Below, piece after piece: positions 35,233-40,074 of a stretch of 64,000 nt of DNA. A model generated the notes under the pieces. The model saw only the letters and a list, made by a program, of their open reading frames with translations. It was not told the DNA's origin and did no database searches. The stretch is from Escherichia coli O157:H7 (lineage in GTDB: Bacteria > Pseudomonadota > Gammaproteobacteria > Enterobacterales > Enterobacteriaceae), in the NCBI RefSeq assembly GCF_013167455.1, contig NZ_CP038328.1; one strand, written 5' to 3'. The position numbers and the translations under genes were made by a program. Position 1 is the stretch's first letter. Each line of letters starts with the position of its first letter.

Positions 35233-36888
35233 ATGACTAATCTTCCCCACTGGTGGCAAAACGGCGTTATCTACCAGATTTATCCAAAGAGTTTTCAGGA
35301 CACCACGGGTAGCGGCACCGGCGATTTACGTGGCGTTATCCAACGCCTGGACTATCTGCATAAACTGGGCGTTGATGCCATCTGGCTAACCCCCTTTTAT
35401 GTCTCTCCGCAGGTCGATAACGGTTACGATGTAGCGAACTATACGGCGATTGATCCCACCTACGGCACGCTGGACGATTTTGACGAACTGGTGACGCAGG
35501 CAAAATCGCGCGGGATTCGTATCATTCTCGATATGGTGTTTAACCATACCTCTACCCAACATGCCTGGTTTCGCGAGGCGCTGAACAAAGAAAGCCCTTA
35601 CCGCCAGTTTTATATCTGGCGCGATGGCGAACCAGAAACGCCACCGAACAACTGGCGTTCAAAATTTGGCGGTAGTGCGTGGCGCTGGCATGCGGAAAGC
35701 GAACAGTACTATTTGCATCTCTTTGCACCAGAACAGGCGGATCTCAACTGGGAGAATCCAGCGGTACGCGCAGAGCTGAAAAAAGTCTGTGAGTTCTGGG
35801 CCGATCGTGGGGTCGACGGGTTGCGCCTGGATGTGGTGAATCTGATCTCCAAAGACCCGCGTTTCCCTGATGACCTGGATGGCGACGGGCGTCGCTTCTA
35901 CACCGACGGGCCACGAGCACACGAGTTTTTGCACGAGATGAACCGCGATGTGTTTACGCCACGCGGGTTAATGACCGTAGGTGAAATGTCCTCCACCAGC
36001 CTTGAGCATTGCCAGCGATACGCGGCACTGACAGGCAGTGAATTGTCGATGACCTTTAATTTTCATCACCTGAAGGTCGATTATCCCGGTGGTGAAAAAT
36101 GGACGCTGGCTAAACCTGACTTTGTGGCGTTGAAAACATTGTTCCGCCACTGGCAACAAGGAATGCACAACGTAGCATTGAATGCCTTGTTCTGGTGTAA
36201 CCACGATCAGCCGCGCATTGTTTCTCGCTTTGGTGATGAAGGTGAATACCGCGTGCCTGCGGCAAAAATGCTGGCGATGGTGCTGCATGGCATGCAGGGA
36301 ACGCCGTATATCTACCAGGGCGAAGAGATTGGCATGACCAACCCGCATTTCACGCGCATTACTGACTATCGCGACGTAGAGAGCCTCAATATGTTTGCCG
36401 AGCTGCGCAACGATGGGCGTGATGCCGACGAGTTATTGGCAATCCTCGCCAGTAAATCCCGTGACAACAGCCGCACGCCCATGCAATGGAGCAACGGCGA
36501 TAATGCCGGGTTTACGGCTGGCGAACCGTGGATTGGCCTGGGCGATAACTATCAACAAATCAACGTAGAAGCCGCGCTGGCCGATGAGTCCTCGGTGTTT
36601 TACACCTACCAAAAGTTAATCGCACTGCGTAAGCAGGAAGCCATCCTGACATGGGGCAATTACCAGGATCTGCTGCCAAACAGCCCTGTATTGTGGTGCT
36701 ATCGCCGTGAATGGAAGGGGCAAACCTTGCTGGTCATTGCCAACCTTAGCCGTGAGATCCAACCCTGGCAGCCAGGGCAAATGCGCGGCAACTGGCAGCT
36801 TGTGATGCATAACTACGAAGAAGCCTCACCACAACCCTGTGCCATGACTTTACGGCCTTTTGAGGCTGTCTGGTGGTTACAGAAGTAA
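35233..36888 (+). CDS. treC: Trehalose-6-phosphate hydrolase
   Basis: GH13 translation MTNLPHWWQNGVIYQIYPKSF...; ORF track start is upstream, overlapping treB. Confidence 0.9.
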   Translation: MTNLPHWWQNGVIYQIYPKSFQDTTGSGTGDLRGVIQRLDYLHKLGVDAIWLTPFYVSPQVDNGYDVANYTAIDPTYGTLDDFDELVTQAKSRGIRIILDMVFNHTSTQHAWFREALNKESPYRQFYIWRDGEPETPPNNWRSKFGGSAWRWHAESEQYYLHLFAPEQADLNWENPAVRAELKKVCEFWADRGVDGLRLDVVNLISKDPRFPDDLDGDGRRFYTDGPRAHEFLHEMNRDVFTPRGLMTVGEMSSTSLEHCQRYAALTGSELSMTFNFHHLKVDYPGGEKWTLAKPDFVALKTLFRHWQQGMHNVALNALFWCNHDQPRIVSRFGDEGEYRVPAAKMLAMVLHGMQGTPYIYQGEEIGMTNPHFTRITDYRDVESLNMFAELRNDGRDADELLAILASKSRDNSRTPMQWSNGDNAGFTAGEPWIGLGDNYQQINVEAALADESSVFYTYQKLIALRKQEAILTWGNYQDLLPNSPVLWCYRREWKGQTLLVIANLSREIQPWQPGQMRGNWQLVMHNYEEASPQPCAMTLRPFEAVWWLQK

Positions 36889-36900
36889 ATCTTCCCTAAG

Positions 36901-36930
36901 CCCCGGTAATGCCGGTCATTCCGGGGTTTT
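36901..36930 (+). terminator. Intrinsic terminator after treC
   Basis: CCCCGG-TAATGCCGGTCATT-CCGGGG hairpin followed by TTTT. Confidence 0.5.
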
Positions 36931-37072
36931 GTCTGTCAGCATGTTGTTTTTGTTGATTTTTCAACCAGCAAATTCATTAAAAAATTTACATAACGCTGTA
37001 GCGCCCGTCATCCGTACGCTCTGCTTTTTACTTTGAGCTACATCAAAAAAAGTTCAAACATCCTTGATGCAA

Positions 37073-37134
37073 AGCACTATATATAGACTTTAAAATGCGT
37101 CCCAACCCAATATGTTGTATCAATCGACTATAAT
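37073..37134. promoter_or_regulatory. Two NrdR-box-like sites and a TATAAT -10 element upstream of nrdDG
   Basis: AGCACTATATATAGAC and ACCCAATATGTTGTAT spaced about three helical turns apart, followed by TATAAT. Confidence 0.5.
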
Positions 37135-37281
37135 TGCTACTACAGCTCCCCACGAAAAAGGTGCGGCGTTGTGGATAAGCGGATGGCGATTGCGGAAAGC
37201 ACCGGAAAACGAAACGAAAAAACCGGAAAACGCCTTTCCCAATTTCTGTGGATAACCTGTTCTTAAAAATATGGAGCGATC

Positions 37282-39420
37282 ATGACACCGCATGTGATGA
37301 AACGAGACGGCTGCAAAGTGCCGTTTAAATCAGAGCGCATCAAAGAAGCGATTCTGCGTGCAGCTAAAGCAGCGGAAGTCGATGATGCCGATTATTGCGC
37401 CACTGTTGCTGCAGTTGTCAGCGAGCAGATGCAGGGCCGCAACCAGGTGGATATCAATGAGATCCAGACCGCTGTTGAAAACCAGCTGATGTCAGGTCCA
37501 TACAAACAACTGGCTCGTGCTTACATCGAGTACCGTCACGATCGCGACATTGAACGTGAAAAACGCGGTCGCCTGAATCAGGAGATCCGTGGTCTGGTCG
37601 AGCAGACCAACGCCTCGTTACTCAACGAAAACGCCAACAAAGACAGCAAGGTGATTCCAACCCAGCGCGACCTGCTGGCCGGGATCGTGGCTAAACACTA
37701 TGCACGTCAGCACCTGCTGCCGCGTGACGTGGTGCAGGCACATGAGCGTGGCGATATTCACTATCACGATCTCGATTACTCACCGTTTTTCCCGATGTTC
37801 AACTGCATGTTGATCGACCTGAAAGGCATGCTGACCCAGGGCTTTAAGATGGGGAACGCCGAGATTGAACCGCCGAAGTCGATCTCTACGGCAACCGCGG
37901 TAACTGCGCAGATTATTGCTCAGGTTGCCAGCCATATTTATGGCGGCACCACCATTAACCGTATCGATGAAGTGCTGGCACCGTTTGTCACCGCCAGCTA
38001 CAACAAACATCGCAAGACCGCAGAAGAGTGGAACATCCCGGACGCCGAAGGCTACGCTAACTCTCGTACCATTAAAGAGTGCTACGATGCCTTCCAGTCG
38101 CTGGAGTACGAAGTAAACACCCTGCACACCGCCAACGGTCAGACGCCGTTTGTAACCTTTGGTTTTGGTCTGGGCACCAGCTGGGAGTCGCGCCTGATTC
38201 AGGAATCTATCCTGCGTAACCGTATCGCAGGCCTCGGTAAAAACCGTAAAACTGCGGTGTTCCCGAAACTGGTGTTTGCGATTCGCGATGGTCTGAACCA
38301 TAAAAAAGGCGATCCGAACTACGACATCAAACAGCTGGCGCTGGAGTGCGCAAGCAAGCGCATGTATCCGGATATCCTGAACTACGATCAGGTAGTGAAA
38401 GTCACCGGTTCGTTTAAAACCCCGATGGGCTGCCGCAGCTTCCTCGGCGTGTGGGAAAATGAAAACGGCGAGCAGATCCACGATGGTCGTAACAACCTCG
38501 GCGTGATCAGCCTGAACCTGCCGCGTATTGCTCTGGAAGCAAAAGGCGATGAAGCCACCTTCTGGAAGCTGCTGGATGAACGTCTGGTGCTGGCACGTAA
38601 GGCTCTGATGACCCGTATCGCTCGTCTCGAAGGCGTGAAAGCGCGCGTGGCCCCGATCCTCTATATGGAAGGTGCTTGTGGCGTGCGTCTCAATGCTGAC
38701 GATGATATTTCTGAAATCTTCAAAAACGGTCGTGCGTCTATTTCGCTGGGTTACATCGGCATCCACGAAACCATTAACGCGCTGTTCGGCGGCGAACATG
38801 TTTACGACAACGAGCAGCTCCGCGCGAAAGGTATCGCCATTGTTGAACGTCTGCGTCAGGCAGTGGATCAGTGGAAAGAAGAAACGGGTTATGGTTTCAG
38901 TCTCTACAGCACGCCGAGTGAAAACCTGTGCGACCGCTTCTGCCGTCTCGATACTGCTGAGTTTGGCGTGGTGCCGGGCGTGACCGATAAAGGTTACTAC
39001 ACCAACAGTTTCCACCTCGATGTGGAGAAGAAGGTGAACCCGTACGACAAGATCGACTTTGAAGCGCCTTACCCGCCGCTGGCGAACGGTGGTTTCATTT
39101 GCTACGGCGAGTATCCAAACATTCAGCACAACCTGAAGGCGCTGGAAGATGTCTGGGATTACAGCTATCAGCATGTACCGTATTACGGCACCAATACACC
39201 GATTGATGAGTGCTACGAGTGTGGCTTTACCGGTGAGTTCGAGTGCACCAGCAAAGGCTTCACCTGCCCGAAATGTGGTAACCATGACGCCTCCCGTGTG
39301 TCGGTAACTCGCCGCGTGTGCGGATATTTAGGTAGCCCGGATGCACGTCCGTTTAACGCCGGCAAGCAGGAAGAAGTTAAGCGCCGCGTTAAACATTTGG
39401 GAAATGGGCAGATAGGTTGA
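37282..39420 (+). CDS. nrdD: Anaerobic ribonucleoside-triphosphate reductase
   Basis: 712-aa translation with C-terminal glycyl-radical region and zinc-ribbon cysteines (CYECGF...CPKCG). Confidence 0.95.
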   Translation: MTPHVMKRDGCKVPFKSERIKEAILRAAKAAEVDDADYCATVAAVVSEQMQGRNQVDINEIQTAVENQLMSGPYKQLARAYIEYRHDRDIEREKRGRLNQEIRGLVEQTNASLLNENANKDSKVIPTQRDLLAGIVAKHYARQHLLPRDVVQAHERGDIHYHDLDYSPFFPMFNCMLIDLKGMLTQGFKMGNAEIEPPKSISTATAVTAQIIAQVASHIYGGTTINRIDEVLAPFVTASYNKHRKTAEEWNIPDAEGYANSRTIKECYDAFQSLEYEVNTLHTANGQTPFVTFGFGLGTSWESRLIQESILRNRIAGLGKNRKTAVFPKLVFAIRDGLNHKKGDPNYDIKQLALECASKRMYPDILNYDQVVKVTGSFKTPMGCRSFLGVWENENGEQIHDGRNNLGVISLNLPRIALEAKGDEATFWKLLDERLVLARKALMTRIARLEGVKARVAPILYMEGACGVRLNADDDISEIFKNGRASISLGYIGIHETINALFGGEHVYDNEQLRAKGIAIVERLRQAVDQWKEETGYGFSLYSTPSENLCDRFCRLDTAEFGVVPGVTDKGYYTNSFHLDVEKKVNPYDKIDFEAPYPPLANGGFICYGEYPNIQHNLKALEDVWDYSYQHVPYYGTNTPIDECYECGFTGEFECTSKGFTCPKCGNHDASRVSVTRRVCGYLGSPDARPFNAGKQEEVKRRVKHLGNGQIG

Positions 39421-39560: not shown

Positions 39561-39609
39561 TTGATTGCCTGATACAGCCTACACGCGGACTGATAAGCCA
39601 GGCGAAATA

Positions 39610-40074
39610 ATGAATTATCATCAGTACTATCCTGTCGACATCGTCAACGGTCCCGGCACTCGCTGCACCCTGTTTGTCTCCGGGTGTGTTCATGAATGCC
39701 CCGGTTGCTATAACAAAAGCACATGGCGGGTAAATTCCGGTCAGCCATTTACTAAAGCAATGGAAGACCAGATCATTAACGATCTGAATGACACTCGTAT
39801 CAAACGCCAGGGTATTTCCCTCTCCGGCGGCGATCCGCTGCATCCGCAAAACGTGCCGGATATTCTGAAACTGGTACAACGCATCCGCGCCGAGTGTCCG
39901 GGTAAAGACATCTGGGTGTGGACAGGCTATAAACTCGACGAACTCAACGCTGCGCAAATGCAGGTTGTTGATTTGATTAACGTGCTGGTCGACGGCAAAT
40001 TTGTGCAGGATTTAAAAGACCCTTCCCTGATCTGGCGCGGCAGCAGCAATCAGGTGGTGCATCATTTGCGATGA
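39610..40074 (+). CDS. nrdG: Anaerobic ribonucleotide reductase activating enzyme (radical SAM)
   Basis: 154-aa translation with CxxxCxxC cluster (CVHECPGC). Confidence 0.9.
   Translation: MNYHQYYPVDIVNGPGTRCTLFVSGCVHECPGCYNKSTWRVNSGQPFTKAMEDQIINDLNDTRIKRQGISLSGGDPLHPQNVPDILKLVQRIRAECPGKDIWVWTGYKLDELNAAQMQVVDLINVLVDGKFVQDLKDPSLIWRGSSNQVVHHLR

Follow-up and report, generated by a model that had tools for sequence, protein, structure and literature searches.

The NrdR operator of the nrdDG promoter in Escherichia coli O157:H7: box register, spacing and position relative to the promoter

Upstream of nrdD in Escherichia coli O157:H7 are two 16-bp sequences that resemble the palindromic NrdR box. 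The locus raises the question of whether these sequences form an operator for NrdR and, if so, where that operator lies relative to the start of transcription and to the sites of other regulators. The original prediction, made from the sequence, had proposed an NrdR operator at the nrdDG promoter, with two sites about 32 bp apart and just upstream of a TATAAT element. We find that the two sites are almost certainly the NrdR operator of nrdDG in E. coli.

The window (the whole 64-kb stretch of DNA that was analysed) contains treR-treB-treC followed by nrdD-nrdG, with open reading frames identified using NCBIfam equivalog models. The regulated gene, nrdD (37282-39420, + strand), encodes the anaerobic ribonucleoside-triphosphate reductase (712 aa); it matches the equivalog model NF006732 with 1220 bits and carries the nrdD annotation in RefSeq E. 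coli genomes. The activating enzyme (154 aa) is encoded by nrdG (39610-40074, + strand), which the equivalog model NF008335 places at residues 16-169 of its open reading frame. The frame as listed begins earlier than nrdG itself, at 39565 rather than 39610. The two sites lie within the treC-nrdD intergenic spacer, 162-208 bp 5' of the nrdD ATG, and nrdD and nrdG are the genes downstream. NrdR is encoded by E. coli (PMC12176259), and the nrdR gene is outside the 64-kb window. The 421 bases around the site have 100% identity with E. coli O157:H7 chromosomes and were found in 5425 of 5426 complete E. coli genomes.

At the other end of the spacer, 13 nt past the treC stop codon, there is a GC-rich hairpin (CCCCGGtAATG ... 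CATTCCGGGG, then TTTT, at 36901-36930) that is probably the intrinsic terminator of treBC. This hairpin was missed by the built-in scan, probably owing to a bulged base. A search for known RNA families and riboswitches gave no credible Rfam match, at a permissive threshold, in the intergenic region or in the 178-nt nrdD leader.

NrdR boxes are described in the literature as 16-bp partial palindromes with highly conserved C4, A6, A8, T9, T11 and G13. The register of the upstream site is set by a perfect palindrome, CTATATATAG, whose centre at 37081.5 places box 1 (GCACTATATATAGACT) at 37074-37089. Box 2 (ACCCAATATGTTGTAT) is at 37105-37120, and neither box is assigned to a strand. In these registers all six conserved positions are present in box 1 and all six in box 2. 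The strings of the original prediction are in place (AGCACTATATATAGAC at 37073-37088, ACCCAATATGTTGTAT at 37105-37120 and TATAAT at 37129-37134), and its box 1 was out of register by 1 nt: a position weight matrix (PWM) for NrdR boxes gives -48 at 37073 and +16.1 bits at 37074. The distance between the boxes, start to start and centre to centre, is 31 bp rather than about 32 bp, and the inter-box linker (37090-37104, + strand) is 15 bp long. The optimum reported for NrdR operators is a linker of 15-16 bp and 31-32 bp between centres, that is, an integer number of helical turns (about three), and binding of NrdR needs both boxes. No C.A.AT.T.G core that could belong to a third NrdR box was found 31-32 bp 3' of box 2 or inside the TATAAT element.

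It is conceivable that sequences of this kind are chance AT-rich palindromes, generic promoter or curvature elements, or sites for H-NS, Fis or IHF rather than for NrdR. When the matches are counted singly, the numbers are compatible with chance. The consensus ACACWATATATWGTGT, with up to three mismatches, matches at the two box sites only in the 64 kb; 0.56 matches are expected, and at least two were reached in 13 of 100 shuffles. The core C.A.AT.T.G, as a single site, occurs 24 times in the 64 kb versus 17.5 expected. The best single PWM match per simulated window had a mean of 12.4 bits and was as high as 17.7 bits. The count of single consensus matches is not significant and we reject it as evidence; the significance lies in the pairing and the spacing only.

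Chance becomes a poor explanation once the boxes are taken as a pair. The cores at 37077 and 37108 are the only pair at 31-32 bp in the 64 kb, 0.01 correctly spaced pairs are expected per window, and any such pair was present in 3 of 300 simulations. The PWM was trained on 42 boxes, comprising the nrdD boxes of distant Enterobacterales families and the E. coli nrdAB and nrdHIEF boxes (PMC12176259), and the training set excluded boxes from the window and from Enterobacteriaceae nrdD. With this matrix, boxes 1 and 2 rank first and second in the 64-kb window, at 16.1 and 14.0 bits, respectively. Their pair score (30.1) is far over the null, in which the best pair over 40 simulated windows scored 2.9 on average and 14.5 at most.

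The conservation of the pair also argues against chance and against a site for another protein. One scan of species-representative genomes with NrdD gave 80 loci from 80 Enterobacterales species, ranging from Escherichia to Budvicia. In 80 of the 80 species, the 450 bp 5' of nrdD hold two boxes spaced 31 or 32 bp apart that keep all 12 invariant positions, and this includes species whose linker is unrelated to the E. coli linker. When the window was aligned by MAFFT to 46 Enterobacteriaceae (47 sequences), the invariant positions of both boxes were kept in 47/47, and the degenerate positions were variable: T or C at 37080 (24 and 23 sequences), C or T at 37111 (28 and 19), and A, C or G at 37114 (19, 10 and 18). 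Conservation thus matches the NrdR logo exactly. As judged from the aligned sequences, this combination of an invariant core with freely varying degenerate positions is what marks selection for the NrdR logo and not for AT-richness. Within E. coli, an 81-bp segment of the region is found in 5422 of 5426 complete genomes, and both boxes are identical among the four E. coli sequences compared, the most divergent strain included. The PWM scan and the comparison of orthologous promoters, both proposed as checks with the original prediction, came out in its favor. The sites, their register and spacing, their statistical uniqueness and their deep conservation are direct observations.

Comparison with the characterised promoter leads to the same operator. 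The 57-bp nrdDG fragment of K-12 (whole, GCAAAGCACTATATATAGACTTTAAAATGCGTCCCAACCCAATATGTTGTATTAATC) consists of GCAAA, GCACTATATATAGACT, TTAAAATGCGTCCCA, ACCCAATATGTTGTAT and TAATC (Rozman Grinberg et al. 2025, PMC12176259). The window is the same at 56 of the 57 positions, and box 1, the linker and box 2 are base-for-base identical, so the two sites are the published box 1 and box 2 of an NrdR-bound oligonucleotide. The window has C37121, just outside box 2, versus T in K-12 and in 41 of the 47 Enterobacteriaceae sequences. Farther upstream, between the two sites for the anaerobic activator FNR, T37053 of the window is C in K-12. The two promoters share their flanking genes, FNR sites and DnaA boxes.

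NrdR binding, its nucleotide dependence, repression and the position of the start site at nrdDG are known from the literature. E. coli NrdR binds the 57-mer with a KD of 160 nM in the presence of ATP and dATP and 152 nM in the presence of ADP and dATP, and the 57-mer is not bound with ATP alone (PMC12176259). Repression of E. coli PnrdD by dATP-loaded NrdR has also been observed in vitro. Against the operator reading, nrdD is only weakly derepressed in an aerobic nrdR mutant of E. coli; the quantitative weight of the nrdDG operator depends on FNR activation. H-NS is also said to act at nrdDG, which would favor a site for another protein, and yet direct binding of NrdR to the nrdDG sequence has been published (PMC12176259). 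Considering the spacing, the conservation and this binding together, we give almost no credence to the boxes being chance palindromes, generic elements or sites of a protein other than NrdR.

The position of the operator relative to the start of transcription depends on the FNR sites. FNR site 2 (TTGAGCTACATCAA, 37033-37046) and FNR site 1 (TTGATGCAAAGCAC, 37064-37077), neither of which is assigned to a strand, resemble TTGAT-N4-ATCAA and are at the published nrdDG positions. Site 2 is inside the published nrdDG FNR-binding 54-mer, to which the window is identical at 53 of 54 positions, and its TTG....ATCAA is conserved; site 1 is conserved in the Enterobacteriaceae alignment. The published centres of sites 2 and 1, as given in a secondary citation, are -64.5 and -33.5, and therefore +1 would be at 37104. 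With +1 at 37104, the -10 hexamer (TAAAAT, 37091-37096) is within the inter-box linker, which also holds the inferred start site. Box 1 would then be at about -30 to -15 and box 2 at about +2 to +17. These positions relative to +1 rest on the secondary citation and on the conservation of the -10 in the linker: the hexamer TA[A/G]AAT is invariant in 47 of 47 Enterobacteriaceae, and TAnnnT is found in the linker in 68 of 80 Enterobacterales species. The copy of the region that diverges most within E. coli, that of strain N50 (L081), has a G-to-A change in FNR site 1 (TTAATG) and TATACT in place of TATAAT, but both NrdR boxes are unchanged.

A different geometry for the same NrdR operator would make TATAAT (37129-37134) the functional -10, as the original prediction implied. 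The start site would be near 37141-37142, the boxes would extend from about -67 to -21, and NrdR would block the -35 region and activator contacts, not the -10 and start site. In favor of this geometry, the hexamer agrees with the -10 consensus at every base and has conserved key positions (T 47/47, A 46/47, T 46/47). Furthermore, a start at 37142 would put the FNR centres (37070.5 and 37039.5) at -71.5 and -102.5, less odd than -33.5, which is an unusual position for an FNR activator. Positions of -71.5 and -102.5 are typical of class I activators. However, TATAAT is without a -35 partner: the hexamers 16-18 bp upstream (CCCAAT, CCAATA and ACCCAA) have at most two of six matches to a -35. Relative to the published start site, as cited secondarily, TATAAT is at +26 to +31 and is not the mapped -10. 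The nrdDG promoter is also listed, in an entry that follows Roca 2008, as 87 bp to the transcription start site. The linker hexamer is fully invariant, whereas other Enterobacterales families have a double DnaA box in place of TATAAT and many of them keep TAnnnT in the linker. Lastly, the built-in promoter scan found no sigma70-like promoter on the + strand in 36850-37320. This result gives TATAAT no support; it fits an activator-dependent promoter and is of no help in choosing between the two -10 candidates. On balance, we regard the downstream start as unlikely and prefer the geometry in which the -10 and the start site lie between the boxes.

This preferred geometry suggests how NrdR might repress nrdDG. 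By analogy with published structures, an NrdR tetramer loaded with ATP and dATP would bind the two boxes from the same face of bent DNA. Judging from the layout, bound NrdR would lie over the -10 hexamer and the start site, both of which are in the linker between the boxes, and so would occlude RNA polymerase. A promoter core placed in this way makes simple occlusion the likely mechanism of repression. The layout further indicates that NrdR at box 1 would probably also compete with FNR at site 1, because box 1 and the promoter-proximal FNR site overlap by 4 bp (37074-37077). At low dATP, NrdR carrying ATP alone assembles into higher oligomers unable to bind DNA, which frees the promoter.

If TATAAT is not the mapped -10, it is still part of a conserved sequence. 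A 14-bp element (TWATCGWCTAYWAT, 37121-37134, + strand) directly follows box 2 and includes TATAAT, which starts 8 bp 3' of the box and, by inspection, has no -35 partner. Among the 47 Enterobacteriaceae sequences, T37129 is kept in 47, A37130 in 46, A37133 in 41 and T37134 in 46. A second start site may arise from this TATAAT. It is possible, if doubtful, that TWATCGWCTAYWAT is a functional part of the nrdDG control region and not neutral sequence. It may be what is left of a double DnaA box after decay, act as a secondary -10, or cause sigma70-dependent pausing early in the transcript.

The first of these roles is of interest in light of the DnaA boxes in the nrdD leader. Perfect DnaA boxes (TTATCCACA) occur just twice in the 64 kb, both times in this leader and on the - strand. 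One, at 37170-37178 (about +67 to +75), is a predicted site based on a sequence match. The other, at 37247-37255, forms a double box (TTAAGAACAggTTATCCACA, 37247-37266) together with TTAAGAACA. Both are near-invariant in the 46 other Enterobacteriaceae species, and their flanks vary. The TTATCCACA/TTAAGAACA double box at 37247-37266 is the DnaA site listed at the nrdD ChIP-seq peak (PMC11317965), and the conserved DnaA boxes in the nrdD leader are already published. By sequence match, the leader 9-mers appear to fit the DnaA box TTATNCACA, including the closely spaced pair at the published ChIP-seq peak, and at least one TTATNCACA is found between box 2 and the start codon in 72 of 80 species.

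NrdR box 2 is followed, with no spacer, by a double box (TTATCCACA-n3-4-ATCCACA) in Yersiniaceae, Pectobacteriaceae, Hafniaceae and Budviciaceae (loci L051-L057, L059-L073, L075, L077 and L078). The same loci have a further TGTGNATAA about 55 nt downstream. Two other loci, from Escherichia sp. ESNIH1 (L031) and Enterobacteriaceae bacterium UBA7338 (L041), have a 16-bp linker and a box pair 103 bp from the ATG. Their leader is 55 nt long and is without both DnaA boxes; it looks like a natural leader deletion.

Enterobacteriaceae carry TWATCGWCTAYWAT where the double DnaA box sits in other families, and the distribution of predicted sites suggests a pairing of NrdR with DnaA sites at nrdD throughout the order. 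If TWATCGWCTAYWAT is a decayed double DnaA box, then DnaA would bind next to NrdR. Enterobacterales nrdDG would in that case be a compact, conserved switch with three inputs: oxygen through FNR, the dATP/ATP ratio through NrdR, and replication status through DnaA.

The box pair at nrdDG was already known; it was predicted in 2005 and has since been studied genetically, biochemically and structurally. The prediction of the E. coli nrdDG boxes is reportedly that of Rodionov and Gelfand in 2005, and Torrents et al. are said to have described the E. coli boxes, box 1 and box 2, in 2007. What we describe is thus a rediscovery of a characterised operator, and it adds nothing new to the operator itself. 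Its value is that of a positive control, in which a genuine operator was placed within 1 nt from sequence alone. The corrections made here are of use, namely the register of box 1, the 31-bp spacing, and the finding that TATAAT is not the mapped -10.

The nrdDG operator is closely related to several known systems. NrdR1 and NrdR2 at nrdDG of Salmonella Typhimurium have the same architecture as the boxes in the window, including an upstream box that overlaps an FNR site, and mutating either box causes strong derepression of nrdDG-lacZ (PMC2892513). Binding of Salmonella NrdR in vitro could not be demonstrated because the protein is insoluble (PMC2892513). The Salmonella boxes are nearly identical to those of the window: S. 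enterica subsp. arizonae (L003) has the same box 2, and its box 1 is changed at two degenerate positions. The box pairs of E. coli nrdHIEF and nrdAB are likewise composed of 16-bp boxes with C4, A6, A8T9, T11 and G13 and a 15-bp linker. They likewise overlap the site for RNA polymerase, and the KD values are similar (113-160 nM; PMC12176259). Lastly, in the cryo-EM structure of Streptomyces coelicolor NrdR with DNA, a tetramer loaded with ATP and dATP is bound to two boxes with a sharp kink at each, and this NrdR (ScoNrdR) also binds the E. coli promoters (PMC9110341).
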